A stretch of 64,000 nt of DNA. Origin: an uncultured virus (IMG/VR IMGVR_UViG_3300029920_000005) (lineage: Duplodnaviria > Heunggongvirae > Uroviricota > Caudoviricetes). The stretch lies in the IMG/VR virus record IMGVR_UViG_3300029920_000005. One strand, 5' to 3'. A program made the translations under genes and the position numbers. Shown in pieces: positions 1,806 to 59,615 of this stretch; position 1 is the first letter of the stretch; each line of letters opens with the position of its first letter. The notes under the pieces were generated by a model, which did no database searches, was not told the DNA's origin, and saw nothing but the letters and a program-made list of their open reading frames with translations.

Positions 1806-2720
1806 TCACGCCGCCACCAGCATCGCCTGAATTACATCCCGCGCGACCGGCGGGCAGACTGCATTGCCGAGCATGTGCATGGCCAACTTTGAAGTTTCCG
1901 GCAGGATGTAATCGGCAGGGAATCCCATCGCCGCCCTGGCCTCTTGCACACTGAGCATGCGCATCCGGTCGCCGTCGACAATCCCCCATCGATCTCGGGT
2001 GGTGATCGTGCCGATCGGGCGGGCGATGCTCCGGCCGCCGCGCTCGTTGCCGTAGTACGCCGTCAAGAACCGCTCACCGTGCTGCCGGCGCCCGTTCTCG
2101 ATCCGCTCCAGTGTCGCAGCGGCTCGCCCGGGCTTCTCGATCTGCGACCACTTCCCGCCGTCGAAGTCGATGATGCCGGACACTGGGACGTGCTCACGCT
2201 GTGGCAGGTTGAGCATCAGCGGGTACTGACTGCGCGTGCCGACGATAAAAAGCCGCTCACGGTTCTGCGGTACACCATGGTCAGCAGCGTCAACGATATG
2301 CGGAGACAGGCAGTAGCCCAGCGCTTCCATGGCCATACGCCATGCTGGGTACAGTGACCACTGCACAAATTCAGGCACATTTTCGATGATGCAGAACTGC
2401 GGACGGTGGTACTCGGCGGCAGAGACGACTGCCCAGGCTGTCGAGCGGCTGGCATCGTGCTGTGGGTTGCCGTGCTCTTTGCCGCGGGCTTTGCTGTGGC
2501 CTTGGCAGCAAGGGCTTGCCATCAGCAGGTCATGTGCCGGCACTTCCATCCACCGCGCCTGATGCAGGTCTTGGCAGGCATGCCGCGCGCCCGGATGATT
2601 GGCTTCGTGAATCTCAACCGCCGATTGCCAGTGGTTTGCGGCCCAGACGACATCGATGCCGGCCATGCGGGCGCCGGTGCTGAAGCCTCCAGCGCCGGCG
2701 AACAGGTCGATTGCTTTCAT
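1806..2720 (-). CDS. DNA cytosine-5 methyltransferase
   Basis: Motif I DLFAGAGG, catalytic SPCCQ, ENV, QNRER, terminal LGNAV. Confidence 0.95.
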   Translation of the reverse strand: MKAIDLFAGAGGFSTGARMAGIDVVWAANHWQSAVEIHEANHPGARHACQDLHQARWMEVPAHDLLMASPCCQGHSKARGKEHGNPQHDASRSTAWAVVSAAEYHRPQFCIIENVPEFVQWSLYPAWRMAMEALGYCLSPHIVDAADHGVPQNRERLFIVGTRSQYPLMLNLPQREHVPVSGIIDFDGGKWSQIEKPGRAAATLERIENGRRQHGERFLTAYYGNERGGRSIARPIGTITTRDRWGIVDGDRMRMLSVQEARAAMGFPADYILPETSKLAMHMLGNAVCPPVARDVIQAMLVAA

Positions 2721-14603: not shown

Positions 14604-16199
14604 TTAATCGTCCACCGGCATAACGATCCGCGCATCAACCCCCGCATGCTTCTGCAAGAGATACAGTAGGTTGGCGCCGTCAAGTAACTCGATCGGTTTG
14701 TTGTTTGCAAACTCGAATGAAGCTTTGCCGTAACCGCTCGTCGCCACCAGGATACCCTTTGACGCGCCCTCGTTCTGCATGGTGCCAAATAAGTCACGAA
14801 CCGCGCTAACGCCAACGGTGTTTTTGTAGCGCTTGGCCTGGATGACAACCTTGCCGCCGAAGATCGGCCGCGGATCGTAGGCAATACAGTCCACGCCGCC
14901 GTCGCGCGATGCCTGTGTCAGCTTGGTTTCTAGCCCCATCTTCTGAAACAGATTTGTAATTAGCGACTCAAACTCACCCGGCGTCAGGTCCATTAAGTTT
15001 TGTCTTTCGTCTAACCCGGACAGAATATCGCTCTCAGTAATGAATCGCGGATCGTTCATGTTCAACTCAAGTATTGGTCGAACCGGGGCCAGCTCTGCCG
15101 GGTTGCGTGACACCGATGCGTTCAGCTGCTGCAGGCACGCCATAGGATCGACTCTACTCAGGTCAATAGCGGCGAATGTGTCTTTTGTGGTTCTGACAGA
15201 AACGACGCAATAACGAGTGTTCTGCCCTGTCGCCGGGTTGATGGTATCGACATACACACTGAGAACCGTGGTGTCGATATTGCCGTCAGTGTCAGCTTGA
15301 AATATCTCGTGCAGGCATCGCAGTGTAGTCTGCGCGATAATCGACGCGTAGATCTGCTTGCGCTGAGCGGCGAGTATCTTCGAATGGCTGAATGTGTCAG
15401 TAGCCTTTACGTGCTTCACTGCTTTTACATCAGGGGTAATCGTTTCAAATGGCGGAACATCATAGTTCACCACCAGTTGACGAGATTCAGGTGAGAAGAC
15501 AATGACGGAGGACTGCGGGAAGCCCTCAGGGAGCGAACTATGGGACAAAACAGCCGAGAAATAGCCTGAAATTGCGTCCGGGTTGTGCGCGCGAAGCGCC
15601 TTCGAGCACTCATCAATTGTTTTGTTGTGTTCGTCTGCTTGGCGTTTAATGCGGGCGACTTCTGCGGTGTATTCAGCCTTGCGTGCCTCTATTTTACCGA
15701 GTCGAAGCGCCTCGTCGGCCTCGTATTTTCTGAGCGCCTGCTGGCGTTTTCGGTCTGAAGCTTCCTTTTCCCGCTCGTACTTAGCTTTTCCTCCTAGCAA
15801 CATGAAAAACCAAGATGGGCGCGGGGTGACGTATTCCCAGTCTACGGGCGCGCGATTCGGCGTTTCAAGGTCTTCGAGATTTAGTACGGGAATATTGGGT
15901 TTGACAATCAGGCAGTCCAGTGAAAATTTCTTTCTACTGCGGATGCCGTCTGCAAGAATGCTGGATAGCTCTCCAATTCGAGCCTCCGCCTCTTCCGTCA
16001 TGCCGGCCGCTTCCTCCGCCCTTGACTCCAGGTAATCGCGTTTGCGCTCTTTTTCGTCGCGCGCGGAAGCTATTCTTGCTTCTCGTTCGAGTCTTGCCTG
16101 CTCCCGGGCGCTCCGGGCTGCATCCCTTGCTGACGCCCTTGCTTGACGTTCAAGCTCCCTGGATAACTGGTTAAGGCCACTAAAAAATCCCCTTGCCAC
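14604..16199 (-). CDS. Mrr-family restriction endonuclease with long N-terminal coiled coil
   Basis: EFESLITNLFQKMG...DGGVD...IQAKRY...GILVATS...ELLDG; GTG start after the terminator. Confidence 0.9.
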   Translation of the reverse strand: MARGFFSGLNQLSRELERQARASARDAARSAREQARLEREARIASARDEKERKRDYLESRAEEAAGMTEEAEARIGELSSILADGIRSRKKFSLDCLIVKPNIPVLNLEDLETPNRAPVDWEYVTPRPSWFFMLLGGKAKYEREKEASDRKRQQALRKYEADEALRLGKIEARKAEYTAEVARIKRQADEHNKTIDECSKALRAHNPDAISGYFSAVLSHSSLPEGFPQSSVIVFSPESRQLVVNYDVPPFETITPDVKAVKHVKATDTFSHSKILAAQRKQIYASIIAQTTLRCLHEIFQADTDGNIDTTVLSVYVDTINPATGQNTRYCVVSVRTTKDTFAAIDLSRVDPMACLQQLNASVSRNPAELAPVRPILELNMNDPRFITESDILSGLDERQNLMDLTPGEFESLITNLFQKMGLETKLTQASRDGGVDCIAYDPRPIFGGKVVIQAKRYKNTVGVSAVRDLFGTMQNEGASKGILVATSGYGKASFEFANNKPIELLDGANLLYLLQKHAGVDARIVMPVDD

Positions 16200-16254
16200 G
16201 GCTCGCCCCTTACTTGATGCAAAATAAAAGCCCGCATTTGCGGGCCTCCAGTAT

Positions 16255-16623
16255 TCAGTCTTTTTTCTTCGCGTCTTGCAGATCCATTGCTCGCTGCACA
16301 ATCTCAAAAATTGTAGCCCGGTCGAGGGCTGACAGTTTTGTCGCCAGATCATCAGGGGAGGACGCCTCAACAATCACATGACCGCCACCACTCAAAACCG
16401 GCGGGATGTCATCGTGCTGAACGTCCATCCACCCTTCTGATAGGTTGCGCACCACCTCAATCTTGCGCGCCATATCGTCGCCGATGTTCTTTTTCCCTGT
16501 CCTGATCCGGCTCAGGTAGTTCGATTCCACTTCTAAATCTTTTGCCAATTCCGCAGCTGCCCCTCGCGGCTCAACCAGCGATAGGAAGTTCTTCAGGCGG
16601 ATTTCTTTATTTGTGAGTCCCAT
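16255..16623 (-). CDS. cI: Phage repressor CI (HTH, no S24 peptidase domain)
   Basis: Divergent from cro across palindromic operators; NYLSRIRTGKKNIGDDMARKIE...GWMD; only 122 aa. Confidence 0.85.
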   Translation of the reverse strand: MGLTNKEIRLKNFLSLVEPRGAAAELAKDLEVESNYLSRIRTGKKNIGDDMARKIEVVRNLSEGWMDVQHDDIPPVLSGGGHVIVEASSPDDLATKLSALDRATIFEIVQRAMDLQDAKKKD

Positions 16624-23290: not shown

Positions 23291-23479
23291 TCACCGGTGT
23301 GGGGTTTTTTGCATCTCAGTAATCAGCAACTGACGGATAGCTGCGGCACCGACTTCACCGGCCCACGCCTTCACATCGGGCGGCACTTTGACAGTGAGAG
23401 CGACGAGGCCAGCGGCTCCGTCTTCTGCCTTGCGGCCGGCGCCCGGTCGAGCGCCTCCGCGTTTTGGTTGTTCGGCCAT
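23291..23479 (-). CDS. Aca-like small DNA-binding protein (RGGARPGAGRK + RHH-like)
   Basis: Last gene of an antisense operon, after the AcrIC5-like gene. Confidence 0.7.
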   Translation of the reverse strand: MAEQPKRGGARPGAGRKAEDGAAGLVALTVKVPPDVKAWAGEVGAAAIRQLLITEMQKTPHR

Positions 23480-23480
23480 G

Positions 23481-23819
23481 TCAGTTCAGAACGAAGTCTT
23501 CGTCGAATTTTGCCTTGTGCGCAGCCATGTAGGCGTCGAGAAATTCTTGATCGGTCTCGACTGTGCCATGGATTTGCTCGCACAGCTCGTCGTCCATCAG
23601 CGCGCGCGCTGCGGCCATATCCACCGGCTTGCCATTGAGCAGTACGTCAGTAGCGACTTCGGTGACAACGATTTCGCTGGGTTCGCCCAGCCGTGCAACC
23701 ATGTCCGCTTCGGACTTGTAGCCAGCATCTTGCGCTGCGATATCACGGGCTTCCTGTGCGGTTTCGGCTTCGATGATGCCAAAGTCACATGCGTTTGCTA
23801 CGACGTTAAATGCTTTCAT
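23481..23819 (-). CDS. Two-domain anti-CRISPR: unknown 55-aa domain fused to an AcrIC5-like domain
   Basis: C-terminal LNGKPVDMAAARALMDDELCEQIH...TDQEFLDAYMAAHKAKFDEDF matches my recollection of AcrIC5 (LNG..ID..AA..LMD.EL...LH...DQEFLDAY..AH.AKF); AGGAG RBS. Confidence 0.8.
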   Translation of the reverse strand: MKAFNVVANACDFGIIEAETAQEARDIAAQDAGYKSEADMVARLGEPSEIVVTEVATDVLLNGKPVDMAAARALMDDELCEQIHGTVETDQEFLDAYMAAHKAKFDEDFVLN

Positions 23820-23860
23820 GATGCGCTCCTGAGTGAGTGGTGTTTCGTTCCGTCCTGCTA

Positions 23861-23896
23861 TGATTGAATAGTATACCAATCAAACAGGATCCGCAA
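23861..23896 (-). promoter_or_regulatory. acr promoter with inverted-repeat operator
   Basis: TTGCGG-17bp-TACTAT; TGATTG-N10-CAATCA straddles the -10. Confidence 0.75.
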
Positions 23897-23948
23897 GATT
23901 TATTTGAGCCGCGCTTGCGAGTGTGGCTTTTTTGCATTCTGGGCACCC

Positions 23949-53629: not shown

Positions 53630-53748
53630 TCCACGACATCCTCATTGCAGTCGGTGGTTTCGTCGGCGGCGTCATTGCGCTGGCCGTTGTTGGTCCGCTC
53701 GTAGCTGCGCTGTTCGGCGGCTGGGTTATGTGGAGGGGTAGCAAATGA
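53626..53748 (+). CDS. Small hydrophobic peptide (40 aa)
   Basis: MIHDILIAVGGFVGGVIALAVVGPLVAALFGGWVMWRGSK; ATGA overlaps on both sides. Confidence 0.6.
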   Translation: MIHDILIAVGGFVGGVIALAVVGPLVAALFGGWVMWRGSK

Positions 53749-54542
53749 GCAAAATCCGACTCGCATTCTCGGGGTCGGGCTTCCGGTTGGGGGCGCACAT
53801 CGGCGCCCTGAAAGCCGTGCTCGATGCCGGATATGACGTGGTTGAGGTCGCGGGCACGTCCGGTGGCTCGATCTGCGCCGCATTGTTTGCCGCCGGCATG
53901 CCGATTGTCGACATGGTTGAGCTCGTCTCTACGATGGACTGGTCGCCGCTGCTGACGTTCGATCCGTGGTCCGGTCTGCGCAATGGCGGCTACTGCTCGG
54001 GCGACAAGCTGCTGGCGTTTCTGCACGGTAAAACCGGTGGCAAAACGTTCGCCGAATTGTCGATCGACCTGAAAATTATCGCGTCCGACCTGGGCGGCGA
54101 AAAGCAGGTTGTATTCAGTAAGGCAACCACGCCTGACATGCCGATTGCCCTGGCCGCGCGCGCCAGCGCGTCGATCCCGTTCGTCTACACTCCGGTCAAA
54201 TATCAAGGCATGACCCTGGTGGATGGCGGGTGCTGTGACAACCTGCCCGCCGACGCACTGACGGTCGACGCCGCGCCGCGCCTCGGCGTTTATCTCCTGT
54301 CGGACGATCCGCCGGCTCAAAGCATGGATCTGGCCACGATGGCCGGGCGGGTGATCGATTTGATGTTGGCGAGCAATGAAGATTTGCATGTCGCCAGCGC
54401 AGAAAAATCCGGCGCGCGAATCGTGCGCGTTGAAACCGCGTACGCAAACTCGCTGGATCGAAATATGCCGGCGGCGATCCGTCAGCGCCTGTTTGATGAT
54501 GGATATGCAGCGGCCGACGCGGCACTGAAAGGCATGGCATGA
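53745..54542 (+). CDS. Patatin-like phospholipase
   Basis: GSGFRLG, GTSGG, DGG catalytic motifs. Confidence 0.93.
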   Translation: MSKIRLAFSGSGFRLGAHIGALKAVLDAGYDVVEVAGTSGGSICAALFAAGMPIVDMVELVSTMDWSPLLTFDPWSGLRNGGYCSGDKLLAFLHGKTGGKTFAELSIDLKIIASDLGGEKQVVFSKATTPDMPIALAARASASIPFVYTPVKYQGMTLVDGGCCDNLPADALTVDAAPRLGVYLLSDDPPAQSMDLATMAGRVIDLMLASNEDLHVASAEKSGARIVRVETAYANSLDRNMPAAIRQRLFDDGYAAADAALKGMA

Positions 54543-54889
54543 GCAAGCTGCGCGAAGTAGCCCCGGGCTTGATGCGGTTCAAGTGTCCGGGGTGCGGTGG
54601 CTTCCATGATATCCCGGTTCGGAGCGCGTCTGAGCCTGGCTCGCAATGGATCTGGAATGGCAGTGTCGACAGGCCGACCCTGACACCGAGCGTACTGGCT
54701 CGATCCGGTCACTACATAGACCCGGGCAGTTGCTGGTGCAAGTACTACGCAGAGCATCCGGAAAAGACTCCGCATTTCAAGTGCGGAATCTGTCACTCAT
54801 TCGTCACTGACGGATATATCCAATATCTGACCGATTGCACCCACGCGCTCGCAGGCCAGACTGTAGCGCTTCCTGACATCGAGGAGTGA
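54539..54889 (+). CDS. DUF6527-like Cys-rich protein
   Basis: CPGC, WNG...PTLTPSVL, CHSFVTDG.IQYL.DCTH. Confidence 0.75.
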   Translation: MSKLREVAPGLMRFKCPGCGGFHDIPVRSASEPGSQWIWNGSVDRPTLTPSVLARSGHYIDPGSCWCKYYAEHPEKTPHFKCGICHSFVTDGYIQYLTDCTHALAGQTVALPDIEE

Positions 54890-55161
54890 ATGTGAAAAAG
54901 TACAAAATCAAAAGAATGGCCGCCACGCTGGTGCTGCTGCTGATCGGCTTCGCGGTCGGCTGGGACGTGGGCGCATGGCGCGCACCAGTGGTGCGGACGG
55001 TCATCCGGTTCGTGCAGCCACTGCCGACACCGTCGTGTCCGGTCATTAAGTCAGCGGCGACGCCGGCTAAGCATGCCCACAGGCACCATCGGCATCATCA
55101 TTGGCGCGCGGTCGCGTGCGTCAATCCGCCCGGCTCAGCGCCAGCCGTATCCCCTCGCTGA
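54886..55161 (+). CDS. Membrane-anchored small protein
   Basis: N-terminal TM, His-rich tail. Confidence 0.5.
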   Translation: MNVKKYKIKRMAATLVLLLIGFAVGWDVGAWRAPVVRTVIRFVQPLPTPSCPVIKSAATPAKHAHRHHRHHHWRAVACVNPPGSAPAVSPR

Positions 55162-55504
55162 CATTCCCGTCACCCAGGCGCTTCGCTGCCTCAAGGCTCG
55201 CGGCGTCAAGGTACACATTGACCCGCTTGCCCCCCTCCATCTCTGCTGGCCGCCCGACTGTAGGCCACTCGATTTCGTCCAGCTTGTCGCGCCAGTAGTC
55301 CGCCGTGCCGGGCGTGCGGTCAAAGCGGTGGAACGCGATCTGGCGATTGCTATAGGTCAGTACGGCGGCGAGCTTCTGCCCGTCGAGGTCGCTCCGATTG
55401 ACGAGCGCGACAAAAGCCTCGGAGGCGGCGCCTTGGTCAGCCGTAATGGTCTTCGACTCAGGCAGTACCTGCTGATCGAAGGTGCGCAAATAGACTCGAT
55501 ACAT
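55121..55504 (-). CDS. Aca-like regulator with C-terminal RHH
   Basis: GRP....GKRVNVYLD.......LGDGNVSEGIRLAL; last gene of the operon. Confidence 0.7.
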   Translation of the reverse strand: MYRVYLRTFDQQVLPESKTITADQGAASEAFVALVNRSDLDGQKLAAVLTYSNRQIAFHRFDRTPGTADYWRDKLDEIEWPTVGRPAEMEGGKRVNVYLDAASLEAAKRLGDGNVSEGIRLALSRAD

Positions 55505-55551
55505 GGCGATCTCCGGCGAAAAGCCCCGGCCTCCCGGGGCGTAATATGGTT

Positions 55552-55833
55552 TTATTTTTGAGTCGCAGCTTTTGCGAAAGCCTTCCCGTACCGGATCGCT
55601 GCGGCGGCATCAAAATTCGCGCCTCCCTCACTCAAAAATTCAAGCTGCGCTTCCAGTGCGGCCTCGTCGACCGCGTACCCGCTTTCGATTTGAGCCTCAG
55701 CCGCGTACTGCCCGGCCAGCTGCTCGGCGGTAAATTCGATGCCCTGCATGCCCTCGGTAAATGGCGCATCGTTGATCAGGTCTACTACGGCGGCAAAGCT
55801 TGCGGCGCTGCGGATCGATAGGCTGGCGTACAT
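55552..55833 (-). CDS. AcrIF6-like anti-CRISPR
   Basis: VVDLIND...EQLAGQYA.EA...LEAQLEFLSEGGANFDAAAAI resembles my recollection of AcrIF6 (IIEAINND...EIAGYYAWDA...AHLEVLEERGAKIDRDAAI). Confidence 0.7.
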   Translation of the reverse strand: MYASLSIRSAASFAAVVDLINDAPFTEGMQGIEFTAEQLAGQYAAEAQIESGYAVDEAALEAQLEFLSEGGANFDAAAAIRYGKAFAKAATQK

Positions 55834-55917
55834 GCGATTCTCCAAATTTCGTGCGGCATATGCCGCGCTGCCTGTTCGGCAGTGAAGAGGAGGCCCGGTT
55901 TCCCGGGCTGTTTTCGA

Positions 55918-56259
55918 TTATTGGGTTACTTCGGTGGCGACGATCTCGCTGGGGGCGCCAAGCTGCGCAACCATGTCGTCTTCGGACTTGTAACCAGCGT
56001 CTTGTGCTGCGATATCGCGGGCCTGTTGAGCGGTTTCGGCTTCGATCAGGCCGAAATCGCAGGCGTTTGCCGTGACCTGCCAGGTCTTCATTTGATTACC
56101 AAGAGCGACGACGCCGTCTTCGTCAACGATGCGCAGACCGCGCCAGCCCAGATTGCTTTCCAGCTCCGCCAATGCCGATTTTGCTTCTGCCAGGGTTTCG
56201 AAATCACCTTCAGCTACGGGTTCGAACTGAAAGCTGGTGCGCGATTGAATGGTGAACAT
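55918..56259 (-). CDS. Two-domain acidic protein, candidate anti-CRISPR
   Basis: First gene of the operon; its C-terminal 55 aa are 45/55 identical to the N-terminus of 23481-23819. Confidence 0.75.
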   Translation of the reverse strand: MFTIQSRTSFQFEPVAEGDFETLAEAKSALAELESNLGWRGLRIVDEDGVVALGNQMKTWQVTANACDFGLIEAETAQQARDIAAQDAGYKSEDDMVAQLGAPSEIVATEVTQ

Positions 56260-56333
56260 GATGGCGATCCTTTATCTGATCTTCCCGGAACCCGCCGGTG
56301 CGGTGGATGGTGTTGTTTGCCGTCCATGAGTTA

Positions 56334-56377
56334 ATTATATACACACTAAATTATTTTGCAAGAATTATGTATGTATA
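56334..56377 (-). promoter_or_regulatory. acr promoter with inverted-repeat operator
   Basis: TTGCAA-16bp-TATAAT; TATACACAC (56338-56346) and GTATGTATA (56369-56377) form an inverted pair. Confidence 0.75.
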
Positions 56378-56400
56378 AAACAAAATATTCTGAGGTGCGC

Positions 56401-56970
56401 ATGAAGAAAGGCAAAGTCTCGAAGCTCAGACCGACGCAATGCGTCGTCGGCCTGGCTGAGGTCGCGGTCAAAAAGGCCGAGCTGTCGGCGCTATCGCCGC
56501 GCAAGCTGGATGAATACTTGCTGGCGCACCCGATTCCGTGCGTAGTCGGCCCGGGCGAGCATTTACACCTGGTCGATCATCATCACATGGGGCTGGCGCT
56601 GACGCAGATGAATCACCCTGACTGCTACATCGAGGTCGTGCATGACCTGTCGACCGTGCCGGAGGGTAAATTCCATCGCGTGATGCAGGCGCTGGATCTA
56701 CTGTACCTGCGCGCTGATGGGCAGGATTTGCCGTTGTACCGACTACCGAAGCGCCTGGCCGACCTGGCTGATGATCCATACCGGTCGCTGGCCGGGTTCG
56801 TGCGCAAGCGCGACGGGTTCGTCAAAGTGCCGGTGCCGTACACTGAGTTCGCATGGGCTGACTTTTTCCGCTCGCGAGTGCGTATCGACGATTGGAGCGC
56901 GGCGATTGAGCGGGCGTTAGAACTGGCGGTGTCGATTGAGGCGCAGTATCTTCCGGGGTTTGCTGGTTAA
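56401..56970 (+). CDS. ParB-like nuclease (ParBc_2 type)
   Basis: LRPTQ..VG, PIPCVVGP, LVDHHH, DDPYRSLAG, EFAWADF. Confidence 0.85.
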   Translation: MKKGKVSKLRPTQCVVGLAEVAVKKAELSALSPRKLDEYLLAHPIPCVVGPGEHLHLVDHHHMGLALTQMNHPDCYIEVVHDLSTVPEGKFHRVMQALDLLYLRADGQDLPLYRLPKRLADLADDPYRSLAGFVRKRDGFVKVPVPYTEFAWADFFRSRVRIDDWSAAIERALELAVSIEAQYLPGFAG

Positions 56971-57356: not shown

Positions 57357-57598
57357 TACGGATCGCGGCCGCTCGGGTTTTTGATGGGGCCAAGGCCATC
57401 GGCGGCACGCAGCAGGTTTAGGCCTTGGACGATTAGCGATTGCATCGGCTCGTGACGGCTGGTCGCCCAATTCTTGATGGCCTGGTGATCGTCGAAGTAA
57501 AGCCAGACGCCGACTTTCACTTTGTCCGGTTTGGCGATCTCGGCGCGCGCTGGCGCATCATCATCAACCAGGAACGATTTCAGGTCTATTTCCGGCAT
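57356..57598 (-). CDS. RHH centromere-binding protein (ParG-like)
   Basis: KVKVGVWL...HQAIKNWA.....MQSLIVQGLNLL; overlaps the parA end. Confidence 0.75.
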   Translation of the reverse strand: MPEIDLKSFLVDDDAPARAEIAKPDKVKVGVWLYFDDHQAIKNWATSRHEPMQSLIVQGLNLLRAADGLGPIKNPSGRDP

Positions 57599-58212
57599 AG
57601 TTCCTCCTTAACCCACGCCCATAGTGCGGTCATTTCAAGCGCCGCCTTGTCGCGCGGCTTGTATTCGTTGACCGATAGCCCGAGGGAAATAGCGTCCTCA
57701 AACGGCAACCGGTCGCCAATCCAGCACGGGATCACCGCGCCCAGTCCAGCCAGGTCAGCAGCGGTCTTATGCGCCTGATCCCGGCGACGCGCATGCACCC
57801 GGGTCAGTAGGAAATAGGGCGCCTTGCCCGCCGCGCGCGCCATTTTCGCCGAAGCTTGCACGCGGGCTATTTCGAGCGCCGCAGACGGCCTGACCGGGAT
57901 AATGATCATGTCGGCAGCTTGGGCGATCTGCGAGGACTCGTGTGCAAGGTGCGGCGGGCTATCAATGACCGCCAGGCTGAAGCCCTTGTTGTGCGCGGTG
58001 TGGATCGCCAGCTGCAACTCAGACGCATGCACCGCGGTGACGACCGGCGTTTCGGATACGCGCTGGCGCGCCCAGCTGGATGCGGATTTCTGCGGGTCGG
58101 CGTCCAGTAGGATGACGCGCTCGCCATCGTCCTGTGCGCGGCAGCTAGCGTGAATGGCCGTGGTGGATTTCGTTCCGCCGCCTTTCTGGCCGAAAAATGC
58201 GATCGTTTTCAT
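57586..58212 (-). CDS. parA: ParA-family ATPase (short, type Ib)
   Basis: QKGGGTKST, LLDADPQ, VIDSPP, ADMIIIPV. Confidence 0.9.
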   Translation of the reverse strand: MKTIAFFGQKGGGTKSTTAIHASCRAQDDGERVILLDADPQKSASSWARQRVSETPVVTAVHASELQLAIHTAHNKGFSLAVIDSPPHLAHESSQIAQAADMIIIPVRPSAALEIARVQASAKMARAAGKAPYFLLTRVHARRRDQAHKTAADLAGLGAVIPCWIGDRLPFEDAISLGLSVNEYKPRDKAALEMTALWAWVKEELCRK

Positions 58213-58439: not shown

Positions 58440-59615
58440 CTATTTCTTCAATCGCTGCTGGTCTAGAAAATCAGACCAGTCCTGCATCATCGTGCGGCGC
58501 TCATCCATGTATTGCGCGTGGTTGTACGCCGCTTTGACCTTGTTGCGCTCCAAGTGCGCCAGCTGGATCTCGATCACTTTTTCGGGGTAGCCGAGCTCAT
58601 GCAGGATTGTTGAGGCGGTCGAGCGAAAGCCGTGGCCAGAGACAACGCCTTTGAAGCCGATTAGCTCAATGAGCCGGTTGATGGTCGTGCCGGTAATACT
58701 GTCATCTGGGCGTCGCGTATTGGGGAATACGAACGGCCTGCCTCCGTGGAACTTCTGCATGTGGTGAAGAATGGTAATGGCCTGGCGCGACAGTGGGACA
58801 ATATGATCAGTGCCCATCTTCATTTTGTCACCGGGGATGCGCCACGTCTGGTCGTCCAGACTGAAGTCATCCCACGTGGCGCGGCGGATCTCGATGGTGC
58901 GAACAAAGGTCAGCAGCATGAACTGTGCGGCGTTTTTTGCCGGGCCATAGCCCTGATAAGCATCGAGCGCGCGCAGGAACTGAGGCAAGTCATCAAGCCG
59001 CAGCGGTTTATGGTGACTGACCGGTGCTCGCTTCACGACACCGCCAAGCGGTGCCGTTGGGTCGTTGTCGCAGCGCAGAGTTGTTATACCGTGCCTGAAT
59101 GCCGCGCCGGCCCACTGGCGCGCATTCCGCGCAACAACCGGCGCGCCCCGTTTTAGTATCGCGTTGATCAGATCAAGACATTGCGCTGAAGTAACGGACC
59201 GAATCGGCAAGTCGCCAATACCGGGATAAACGTCAGCCGCCAGTGTTTTCTCTACTTGACGTTTGTATGGAGCGCTCCAGTGCTGGTTGGCTGCGATCCA
59301 CTCCTCTGCGACCATGCGGAATGTATTCTGATCTTGGTTGATTTGCCGGGCTATGGCTGCTTTTTTTGCCGTGTTCGGACTCTGTCCCGATGCCACCAGT
59401 GCGCGCGCCGCTTCCAGTAATTTGCGCGCATCTGCCAGGCCGACGGAGGGGTATTCTCCAATGGTAAACATACTGGCCTTTCCGTCCAGCCGGAAGCGGT
59501 AGCGCCATAGTTTTTGGCCGGATGGTCGTATCTCGACGCATAGCCCCTTGTGGTCAGCCAAGCGGTAGACCTTATCGGTCGGTTTGGCCTGTCGAATCTT
59601 GGTGTCTGACAGCAT
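58440..59615 (-). CDS. int: Tyrosine integrase (P4-like, N-terminal arm-binding domain)
   Basis: MLSDTKIRQAKP...; catalytic R (FVRT), HGFR, LAH, AAYN. Confidence 0.95.
   Translation of the reverse strand: MLSDTKIRQAKPTDKVYRLADHKGLCVEIRPSGQKLWRYRFRLDGKASMFTIGEYPSVGLADARKLLEAARALVASGQSPNTAKKAAIARQINQDQNTFRMVAEEWIAANQHWSAPYKRQVEKTLAADVYPGIGDLPIRSVTSAQCLDLINAILKRGAPVVARNARQWAGAAFRHGITTLRCDNDPTAPLGGVVKRAPVSHHKPLRLDDLPQFLRALDAYQGYGPAKNAAQFMLLTFVRTIEIRRATWDDFSLDDQTWRIPGDKMKMGTDHIVPLSRQAITILHHMQKFHGGRPFVFPNTRRPDDSITGTTINRLIELIGFKGVVSGHGFRSTASTILHELGYPEKVIEIQLAHLERNKVKAAYNHAQYMDERRTMMQDWSDFLDQQRLKK

Follow-up and report, generated by a model that had tools for sequence, protein, structure and literature searches.

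We analyzed a stretch of 64,000 nucleotides (nt) from an uncultured virus of the class Caudoviricetes (IMG/VR record IMGVR_UViG_3300029920_000005), here called the window, with a focus on the locus at 55121-56400, which holds three minus-strand genes, denoted g1, g2 and g3, together with a promoter and several hairpins. We consider it likely that this is an anti-CRISPR (Acr) locus organized as a self-limiting cassette, in which an AcrIF6-family protein would be combined with a decoy of the type I-F repeat, an acidic fusion protein and a ribbon-helix-helix (RHH) self-repressor, with activities predicted from related systems. A preliminary description of this DNA had listed a promoter with an inverted repeat, three leftward genes and GC-rich hairpins, and each of these elements was recovered in its place on the minus strand. 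It had not listed the repeat unit between g1 and g2, the kinship of the C-terminal half of g1 with the AcrIC5 fusion, the reuse of promoter and leader in other loci, or the two hairpins of the 5' leader. The three genes are as follows.

55918-56259, minus strand: g1, an acidic two-part protein of 113 amino acids (aa), isoelectric point (pI) 4.05, net charge -13.5
55552-55833, minus strand: g2, an AcrIF6-family protein of 93 aa, pI 4.15
55121-55504, minus strand: g3, a predicted regulator of 127 aa with an N-domain (residues 1-80) and a C-terminal RHH part (about residues 91-127)

Sequence, fold and genomic context all place the product of g2 in the AcrIF6 family, and its activity is predicted from this homology. 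Five relatives of g2 were found among 5.8 billion proteins, and the profile built from five sequences matched AcrF6 in the Protein Data Bank (PDB; 6vqx_A) at E=8.3e-8. An exhaustive profile search returned 196 cluster representatives at E<=1e-3, including 47 at E<=1e-10. We then used an alignment of 54 sequences, made of the five first relatives and 49 picked among the 150 matches listed (E<=1.5e-8, length up to about 125 aa, longer fused forms omitted), and its profile matched 6vqx_A at E=1e-13, covering residues 10-94 of the 100 in AcrF6. The AlphaFold (AF2) model of g2 has a predicted local distance difference test score (pLDDT) of 97.1. When this model was compared with solved structures by Foldseek, 6vqx_A ranked first, with template modeling (TM) scores of 0.76 and 0.73 and a root-mean-square deviation (rmsd) of 2.9 Å over 98 columns at 24% identity; the Foldseek E of this pair was only 0.039, and all remaining matches stayed at TM 0.53 or below. 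The preliminary description had called the middle gene AcrIF6-like and had named a lack of profile similarity as the outcome that would speak against it. The profile searches were run and gave the similarity reported above, and the predicted fold matches AcrF6 alone.

The genomic context of the family was also compared. Relatives of g2 with 38-47% identity lie directly upstream of Aca2_YdiL genes in the fetched loci L100 and L102/L103 (Pfam E=2.4e-26 and 7.3e-22; Aca, anti-CRISPR-associated). By eye, helix-turn-helix (HTH) genes follow the AcrIF6-family gene in L224 and L225, and in L227/L228 the relatives of g2 lie upstream of a longer protein with an Aca2-like end. In the window, the RHH gene g3 lies downstream of g2, so that the AcrIF6-family gene is found here, too, in an acr locus with a regulator gene.

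The spacers between the three genes hold the following hairpins.

55892-55909, minus strand: GC hairpin GCCCGG-GAAA-CCGGGC after g1, from folding, with no U-run on this strand
55860-55887, minus strand: solitary type I-F CRISPR repeat-like unit, a candidate RNA anti-CRISPR (Racr), from the Rfam family CRISPR-DR4
55868-55882, minus strand: Cas6f-type hairpin CUGCC-GAACA-GGCAG within the repeat unit
55853-55866, minus strand: third spacer hairpin GCGGC-AUAU-GCCGC, from folding, overlapping the diverged 3' part of the repeat unit
55523-55540, minus strand: GC hairpin GCCCCGG-GAGG-CCGGGGC of 7 base pairs followed by CUUUUC, from folding, a possible weak terminator or attenuator before g3

The spacer between g1 and g2 (about 84-87 nt) folds into three successive hairpins at -36.3 kcal/mol, with a z of -4.25 and none of 200 shuffles equally stable. 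The fold of the spacer between g2 and g3 is unexceptional (z -0.83, 31 of 200 shuffles equally stable), and a terminator scan did not flag its hairpin at 55523-55540 on the minus strand. The repeat unit begins 30 nt past the stop codon of g1 and ends 26 nt before the start codon of g2, and it was detected by a permissive Rfam scan as CRISPR-DR4, the type I-F repeat, at 18.6 bits (E=0.069 in 111 nt). Its positions 2-21, which include CUGCC-N5-GGCAG, equal the consensus except for one loop base, C6 and G20 are retained, and the last seven positions match the I-F consensus in two of seven. The 19-mer TTCACTGCCGNNNAGGCAG has one exact match in the 64-kb window, where 0.07 would be expected even at up to two mismatches. 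The same 20-mer is present in canonical I-F repeats, mini-arrays or lone units of seven other viral contigs, and some of the terminal units in those contigs are likewise diverged at the 3' side.

By analogy to known RNA inhibitors, the lone type I-F repeat hairpin probably acts as an RNA decoy. According to the available part of the RacrIF1 study (PMC10651486), a stem-loop with C6 and G20 is essential, the 8-nt handle is largely dispensable and altered handles still inhibit substantially. The same part of that study reports an enrichment of Racr candidates at distances of up to 1 kb from acr genes, and it places a type I-C racr 11 nt behind a homologue of acrIC5, both on a single transcript. 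Since the unit of the window is located between two coding genes and has no promoter of its own, its cleavage would also split the operon mRNA.

To see how often such a hairpin accompanies the family, we counted it in 926,928 bases (both strands; about 463 kb) from 96 loci that had not been chosen for the hairpin. The pattern CTGCC-N5-GGCAG occurred at three places only, each 11-40 nt from an AcrIF6-family open reading frame (ORF): in the contig of the window, upstream of the gene in L104 and downstream of it in L225. These are three of nine distinct AcrIF6-family loci. In L104 (204-756), the AcrIF6-family gene with its upstream Cas6f hairpin is followed, by eye, by a 78-aa N-domain of the WRLY type that stands alone, without an RHH part. 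The pairing of AcrIF6 with such a hairpin is not described in the available part of the Aca14 preprint (10.64898/2026.07.27.740549), and the name AcrIF6 does not occur in the main text of PMC10651486.

We regard it as unlikely that the I-F-like hairpin is an element of the mRNA only, such as a stabilizer, a processing site for host RNase or a remnant of an old array, which would not engage Cas6f and would leave the action to the proteins alone. This would fit the position of the hairpin among two more GC hairpins in a highly structured spacer, its Rfam score below the gathering score, the diverged 3' third of the unit and the 5' flank of the hairpin in L104, which is also diverged. However, the 19 specified-plus-loop positions match genuine I-F repeats exactly, and the hairpin is seen again next to genes of the AcrIF6 family whose proteins share only 38-46% identity, while it does not occur in the other ~460 kb examined. 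In addition, RacrIF1 stays active with a diverged handle, as far as PMC10651486 was available.

Three further loci were found through the hairpin itself. In L156, a promoter and leader of the same type as in the window precede two cargo genes with the hairpin between them, and an RHH-like gene comes last. In L147 (reverse strand, about 560-1010), four I-F-like units are interleaved with small genes behind such a leader; one of them lies in the 5' untranslated region (UTR) right before the first start codon, and the other three follow one another between the first two small genes. L107 (119-500) holds a stand-alone RHH gene of the family of the g3 C-terminal part (E=3e-10) and then I-F repeat sequence. 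Behind the RHH gene, a promoter-like stretch leads into an I-F repeat, which is separated by about 50 nt from a degenerate repeat with a terminator after it. The L107 unit looks like a mini-array or a Racr beside a regulator.

The protein encoded by g1 consists of two acidic halves.

56092-56259, minus strand: N-terminal half of g1 (residues 1-56), orphan and acidic, pI 4.2
55921-56091, minus strand: C-terminal half of g1 (residues 57-113), a shared acidic module of 57 residues, pI 4.05

Two relatives of g1 were found in a large protein collection, namely a twin of 113 aa with 99% identity and the product of 23481-23819 of the window itself. The C-terminal half of g1 is 82% identical to the N-terminal half of the 23481-23819 protein, and the C-terminal half of that protein belongs to the Pfam family AcrIC5 (PF22147; E=4.6e-17, 62.3 bits against a cut-off of 27, residues 61-109). 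The module also occurs alone as a 59-aa ORF in the viral locus L006 (65% identity), and it is split by a frameshift into two short ORFs in the GenBank phage MW202816.1 (L001 2510-2684). In MW202816.1, a gene annotated as 'cas system-associated protein' is located ~1.5 kb downstream of the split module. Beyond its own contig and the twin, the N-terminal half gave one weak match of 24 residues. Searches of g1 against PDB (E<=10), Pfam and PHROGs (E<=1) found no relative, the best Pfam match being the unrelated HAAS at E=0.052, and no relative was found for the module profile in PDB or for the module in Pfam. An Atlas search gave no lead for the whole of g1 (best 0.78) or for the module (best 0.83). 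We also considered an internal duplication of g1, which was rejected because hhalign gave a probability of 0.1 for the N-terminal half against the module.

The preliminary description had regarded the N-terminal half as a further acidic domain faintly reminiscent of AcrIC8. The acidic orphan character of this half was borne out, and a likeness to AcrIC8 was found nowhere in PDB, Pfam, PHROGs or the Atlas, libraries in which the presence of AcrIC8 is uncertain. The C-terminal half, on the other hand, turned out not to be peculiar to this operon, being the module of an operon at 23291-23908 (operon 1). A small acidic module that one phage carries in two operons, joined to a known Acr in the first and to a different small acidic domain in the other, fits a modular inhibitor. 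Operon 1 lies on the minus strand and encodes the 112-aa fusion of the module with AcrIC5 (23481-23819) and then a basic protein of 62 aa (23291-23479, pI 10.2), whose GGARPGAGRK motif resembles the alternative C-termini of some g3 relatives. The -10 box of its promoter, TATACT, lies within a short repeat, GATTG...CAATC.

It is also conceivable, if rather improbable, that g1 is not one protein and that the module is translated alone from Met57, with the upstream 56 codons making a separate peptide or staying untranslated. The C-terminal half starts with its own Met (MKTWQV), in alignment with the place where the module starts both in L006 and in the AcrIC5 fusion, and the N-terminal half has no independent homologues. 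Against this, no stop codon separates the halves, a good Shine-Dalgarno (SD) sequence, AAAGGA, precedes Met1 while none is clear before Met57, Met1 aligns with the start codons of the cargo genes in sister cassettes, and a product of 113 aa with 99% identity is on record.

The third gene, g3, has 295 homologues, several of which are on plasmids of Cupriavidus, Ralstonia, Salmonella and others. In the 71 viral and six genomic loci fetched with the g3 profile, residues 1-80 occur alone or with a different C-terminus, and residues 82-126 are found by themselves, as proteins of about 56 aa, or are preceded by other N-terminal domains, of which there are at least five. The N-domain shares 60-77% identity among relatives and contains invariant H59-R60-F61-D62 and W71-R72. 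In the model of g3, with a pLDDT of 89.9, a linker connects the bbabb N-domain to an extended segment and two helices. Residues 90-127 of this model superpose on the RHH protein ArtA (3gxq_B, Z 3.6, rmsd 1.6 Å, 38 residues) and also on MazE9 (8imh_B, Z 3.3), with the rmsd of the two ranging from 1.6 to 2.1 Å. With Foldseek, g3 matched Dmd, an antitoxin of phage, best (E=0.25; TM on the target 0.55), and no match reached E<=1e-3. Residues 84-127 were predicted to form a homodimer with a score of 0.42 against 0.00 for the best control, a mark that was reached by 20 of 30 solved pairs and one of 23 single chains. In this prediction, strand 94-99 runs antiparallel across the dimer, the runs agree in at least 88% of the contacts, and the pLDDT is 74. 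RHH dimers are textbook knowledge, and since they are so well known, the dimer prediction may reflect likeness only. A search of the RHH part against 50,697 phage records returned only a Pseudomonas phage at E=0.3, and no Pasteurella phage.

Considering the RHH-like C-terminal part, the last place in the operon and the palindrome at the promoter, an RHH autorepressor is the best reading for g3, as judged from the model and from analogous regulators. The two-domain architecture with an extra part of about 80 aa, which had been proposed previously, agrees with the separability of the two parts in relatives and with the model, the superposition and the predicted dimer of the C-terminal part. It is possible, and in our view somewhat unlikely, that g3 is a bifunctional Acr-Aca, the N-domain of which would itself be an inhibitor or a sensor of a host defence protein whose binding relieves repression. 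The precedent is AcrIE10, which is described in the available part of PMC13530269 as a solved protein that joins an RHH to an Acr domain, with repression of its own locus and release by Cas7. The N-domain of g3 is separable and strongly conserved, occurs by itself as well as with two different DNA-binding C-termini, and the antitoxin Dmd (Z 4.4) and AcrIF9 (Z 4.0) are among the weak fold neighbours of g3. However, all fold matches of g3 are under the level that VIA-align considers meaningful, the conservation of the N-domain is above that usual for Acr proteins, and a role in oligomerization or RNA binding fits this domain equally.

The region upstream of g1 contains the following control elements.

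56365-56377, minus strand: left arm of a palindrome, a candidate operator, upstream of the -35 box
56334-56361, minus strand: sigma-70-type promoter TTGCAA-16-TATAAT, matching the consensus at 10 of 12 bases and also conserved across the nhmmer leader model
56338-56350, minus strand: right arm of the palindrome, overlapping the -10 box
56304-56326, minus strand: 5' UTR hairpin 1, UGGA.GG ... CC.UCCA, from folding, at the predicted 5' end of the mRNA
56285-56298, minus strand: 5' UTR hairpin 2 with a CCGG stem and the conserved loop CGGGUU, from covariation
56268-56273, minus strand: SD sequence AAAGGA of g1, aligned with the SD sequences and start codons of cargo genes in related loci

A promoter scan of the region found four promoter-like sites against 0.7 +/- 0.8 in shuffles. 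The two arms of the inverted repeat, 13 nt each, are complementary at 10 of 13 positions in the window. When 28 loci were aligned (alignment A5, 14 arm positions), 81% of the arm positions were complementary against 76% in column shuffles, a level reached by none of 500 shuffles, and slid controls gave at most 54%. One position of the palindrome switches symmetrically, being A:T in 12 loci and G:C in 12. Predicted ORFs upstream of the g3 relatives pointed to conserved DNA at this place. A leader model that we built for nhmmer from the promoter and leader of the window matched 62 times in 58 of 89 loci (E<=1e-3), with 35 distinct copies at E<=1e-8. Within the window, it matched at 56381-56283 (E=6e-25) and, weakly, at 23908-23838 upstream of operon 1 (E=0.006). 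Rfam holds no family that matched the leader. The leader with a g3-type cassette was also found on the plasmids L011 (Ralstonia pRsT78) and L012 (Salmonella IncI1), among strings of small hypothetical genes.

The first cargo genes behind these leaders encode 25 distinct proteins of 54-204 aa, 24 of which have no Pfam family and one of which is NinX; none is like g1. The palindrome, promoter and 5' UTR are thus a reusable cassette with diverse cargo, in phages and plasmids. In L101 (1880-3533), an AcrIF6-family gene stands behind a leader that has a hairpin 1 of the same family and a different, perfect palindrome, TTGACC-N5-GGTCAA; the next genes there encode an acidic protein of 220 aa and a 140-aa protein with, by eye, an RHH-like N-terminus, neither of which matches Pfam. 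By eye again, the cargo of the sister cassettes in L070, L073 and L077 includes small ParB-N-like proteins.

The segment of hairpin 1 folds in 24 of 26 related leaders with differing stem sequences, as judged from the fold only, without a shuffle control; the two failures are L043, where the segment was shortened by the anchor rule, and L085. For hairpin 2, an alignment of 17 variant-A leaders (A6) had 92.9% of the cells paired and compensatory changes in all five pairs, with the row of L011 misaligned and counted as broken. The covariation was 0.696 against 0.191 in shuffles (none of 500 reached it) and at most 0.18 in slid controls. The minimum free energy fold of the window's own single sequence favours an alternative pairing over hairpin 2. 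RNAalifold on the 201 columns of A5 gave six pairs only; the two leader variants are misaligned in A5, which leaves few pairs to this method, and for this reason named structures were tested instead.

The variants of hairpin 2 were compared with the regulators of the same loci in 38 distinct combinations of leader and regulator. Variant A was accompanied by a g3-type N-domain in 11 of 11 classifiable combinations, with four more that have no regulator within the fetched stretch. Variant B went with a WRLY-type N-domain and the same RHH in 13 of 14 and with the RHH only in the remaining one. Nine of the 38 leaders were unclassified, among them L084 and L020, which are variant A by eye and have a g3-type N-domain. 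No crossed case of hairpin and N-domain was found among the 38 combinations, and the switching position of the palindrome follows the split into variants A and B. Leader and regulator are passed on as one unit, so that two lineages, rather than a functional match, may underlie the correlation. A more far-reaching idea, which we hold as speculative and doubtful, is that the locus represents a widespread modular anti-defence cassette with two layers of control, in which the RHH would read the palindrome and an exchangeable N-domain would read the matching 5' UTR hairpin by the ribosome-binding site. Cas6f would cut the transcript as well, which would tie up Cas6f and release an acrIF6-regulator mRNA with a 5'-OH end. 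If this were true, the response against type I-F would be tuned by the very enzyme under attack.

The surroundings of the operon are phage throughout. To its left are tail fibre and lysozyme genes, and then a patatin-like gene and a DUF6527 gene. Beyond the operon, a ParB-like nuclease gene runs divergently, and genes for ParA, for an integrase (58440-59615) and for an AlpA-type excisionase come next. The operon lies in the accessory region of this temperate phage, with the lysis genes on one side and the integrase on the other. Other genes noted in this phage are listed below.

56398-56970, plus strand: ParB-like nuclease gene (Pfam ParBc_2, E=5e-46), divergent from the operon promoter
57586-58212, minus strand: ParA-type ATPase gene with a small ORF downstream
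53745-54889, plus strand: patatin-like phospholipase gene (E=5e-31) and DUF6527 zinc-ribbon gene, immediately left of the operon
14604-16373, minus strand: 589-aa protein with an Mrr-type restriction endonuclease domain
1806-2720, minus strand: C-5 cytosine DNA methylase

Based on these results, we propose the following course of events for the locus. The strong promoter, which is flanked and overlapped by the palindrome, would be shut after an early burst of transcription when a dimer of g3 binds the palindrome, by analogy to Aca14 and AcrIE10. The transcript would bear a structured leader with two hairpins. The acidic fusion g1 would supply two small domains, one of which is fused to AcrIC5 elsewhere in the phage, and both are candidate inhibitors. 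In the repeat unit, the Cas6f hairpin is intact and the part for the 5' handle has diverged, and the Cas6f of the host would bind and cut it, and the cut product would tie up Cas6f and Cas7f in dead-end complexes as shown for RacrIF1. Finally, g2 would bind the type I-F surveillance complex and block its binding to DNA, as suggested by homology and fold.

Several results weigh against this proposal. For g2, a search with the single sequence against solved structures gave AcrF6 only at E=0.88. The repeat unit lies at 18.6 bits below the Rfam gathering score of 35 and has E=1 in a search of 1.6 kb, it fails the 90% rule of SRUFinder with 21 of 28 identities to the consensus, though its identity to the host's own repeat may be higher, and it is absent from the nine supplementary text files of PMC10651486. 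The hairpin is missing from six of the nine AcrIF6-family loci. In a broad scan with CTGCCGNNCAGGCAGC, which gave at least 119 stretches, none of the 80 fetched loci carried an AcrIF6-family gene; most of these matches are chance matches in coding sequence, so that the scan says little on how frequent I-F units are beside AcrIF6-family genes. Apart from the shared module, g1 has no known relatives. No significant match to g3 was found in Pfam or PDB with the single sequence or the profile, its best library match was CcdA at E=0.22, seen in three of 40 family members, and VIA-align over 48,161 chains gave no Z>=5, so that its fold matches are weak. No tRNA or host genes were found in the 64-kb, all-phage window.

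With these points in view, one may ask whether the operon is a general accessory or regulatory cassette unrelated to CRISPR, in which a protein of the AcrIF6 fold has another role. Among the cargo proteins of sister cassettes, 24 of 25 have no known family and one is NinX, and several of the sister cassettes are on plasmids, which would fit such a role. We find it very improbable nevertheless, considering that one and the same phage combines a member of the AcrIF6 family and a type I-F repeat unit with the AcrIC5 domain of operon 1, and that relatives of g2 lie in acr-aca2 operons. The interpretation as an anti-CRISPR operon, which the preliminary description had given, is supported at the level of sequence and predicted fold. 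That description had also suggested that the phage counters types I-C and I-F and perhaps I-E. At the family level, this agrees for type I-C with the AcrIC5 domain of operon 1 (E=4.6e-17) and for type I-F with the membership of g2 in the AcrIF6 family. Pseudomonas AcrIF6 has dual activity against types I-F and I-E, and this is the sole ground for any idea of I-E activity here.

As an anti-CRISPR locus, this operon would be a compact natural arrangement in which one CRISPR type would be countered both by a protein and by a probable RNA inhibitor, under a predicted RHH autoregulator. The two small acidic domains are candidates for anti-CRISPRs, one of them already fused to AcrIC5. With the cassette of promoter, operator and leader as a probe, phages and plasmids could be searched for new anti-defence genes. 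Moreover, the link between the covarying leader hairpin and the N-domain makes control at the RNA level by a non-HTH Aca directly testable.

In its general design, the locus is an acr locus of a known kind, and its parts can be compared with those of known systems. AcrIF6, as seen in chain A of PDB 6vqx, a type I-F Csy complex with AcrF6, resembles g2 in size (about 93-100 aa), in acidic character, in near full-length profile homology and in helical fold (TM 0.76), and relatives of g2 occur in acr-aca operons. The two proteins differ in that they share 24% identity in the structural alignment, that g2 carries an inserted EG-x-EG-IEF strand pair which AcrF6 does not have in the alignment, and that g2 is partnered by an RHH regulator and not by an HTH one as for AcrIF6.

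The repeat unit is comparable with RacrIF1 and RacrIC1 (Camara-Wilpert et al. 2023), as described in the available part of PMC10651486. These, too, are lone repeat-like units in intergenic regions of phages beside acr genes. Like RacrIF1, the unit of the window has an intact Cas6f hairpin with C6 and G20, and like RacrIC1, which follows acrIC5, it lies inside an acr operon. In contrast with these Racrs, the 3' 7 nt of the unit differ from the I-F consensus and it stays below the Rfam and SRUFinder thresholds, and it is located between two coding genes with no promoter of its own.

Among the regulators, Aca14 has features in common with g3. As described in the available part of its preprint of July 2026 (10.64898/2026.07.27.740549), this RHH regulator, whose reference protein is from Pasteurella, occurs most often together with AcrIF23, AcrIF6 and AcrVA3, an inverted repeat covers the -10 box, and an adjacent operon encoding AcrIF6 can be under its control as well; no covarying RNA motif was found there for its operons. 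Aca14 and g3 are alike as small RHH proteins at the end of acr operons with an AT-rich inverted repeat overlapping the -10 box. Both are seen with AcrIF6, often in the case of Aca14, and both may control a second operon, for which the weak leader-like site upstream of operon 1 (E=0.006) would be the counterpart here. Unlike Aca14, g3 has an N-terminal domain of 80 aa, and the cassette of the window has a covarying hairpin in its 5' UTR. AcrIE10, as presented in the accessible part of PMC13530269 (Nat Commun 2026), shares with g3 the fusion of an RHH to a second domain, and its locus likewise has an inverted repeat, over the -10 and -35 boxes, with autorepression of an acr locus. However, the RHH is N-terminal in AcrIE10 and C-terminal in g3, and there is no detectable sequence likeness, as the PDB searches with the single sequence and the profile of g3 found no such chain.

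Aca2, as far as the sources at hand describe it, has an operator at the promoter and conserved hairpins between the transcription start and the SD sequence of the first acr gene, as in the window. In Aca2, which is an HTH protein, a single domain reads DNA as well as RNA, whereas the DNA-binding RHH of the present cassette is common to two cassette lineages and hairpin 2 changes with the N-domain of the regulator. Taken all together, and within the parts of the literature that were available, three features of this locus go beyond the systems described, namely the recurrent Cas6f hairpin by AcrIF6-family genes, the reused cassette of promoter, palindrome and leader, and the covarying hairpin that tracks the N-domain of the regulator.

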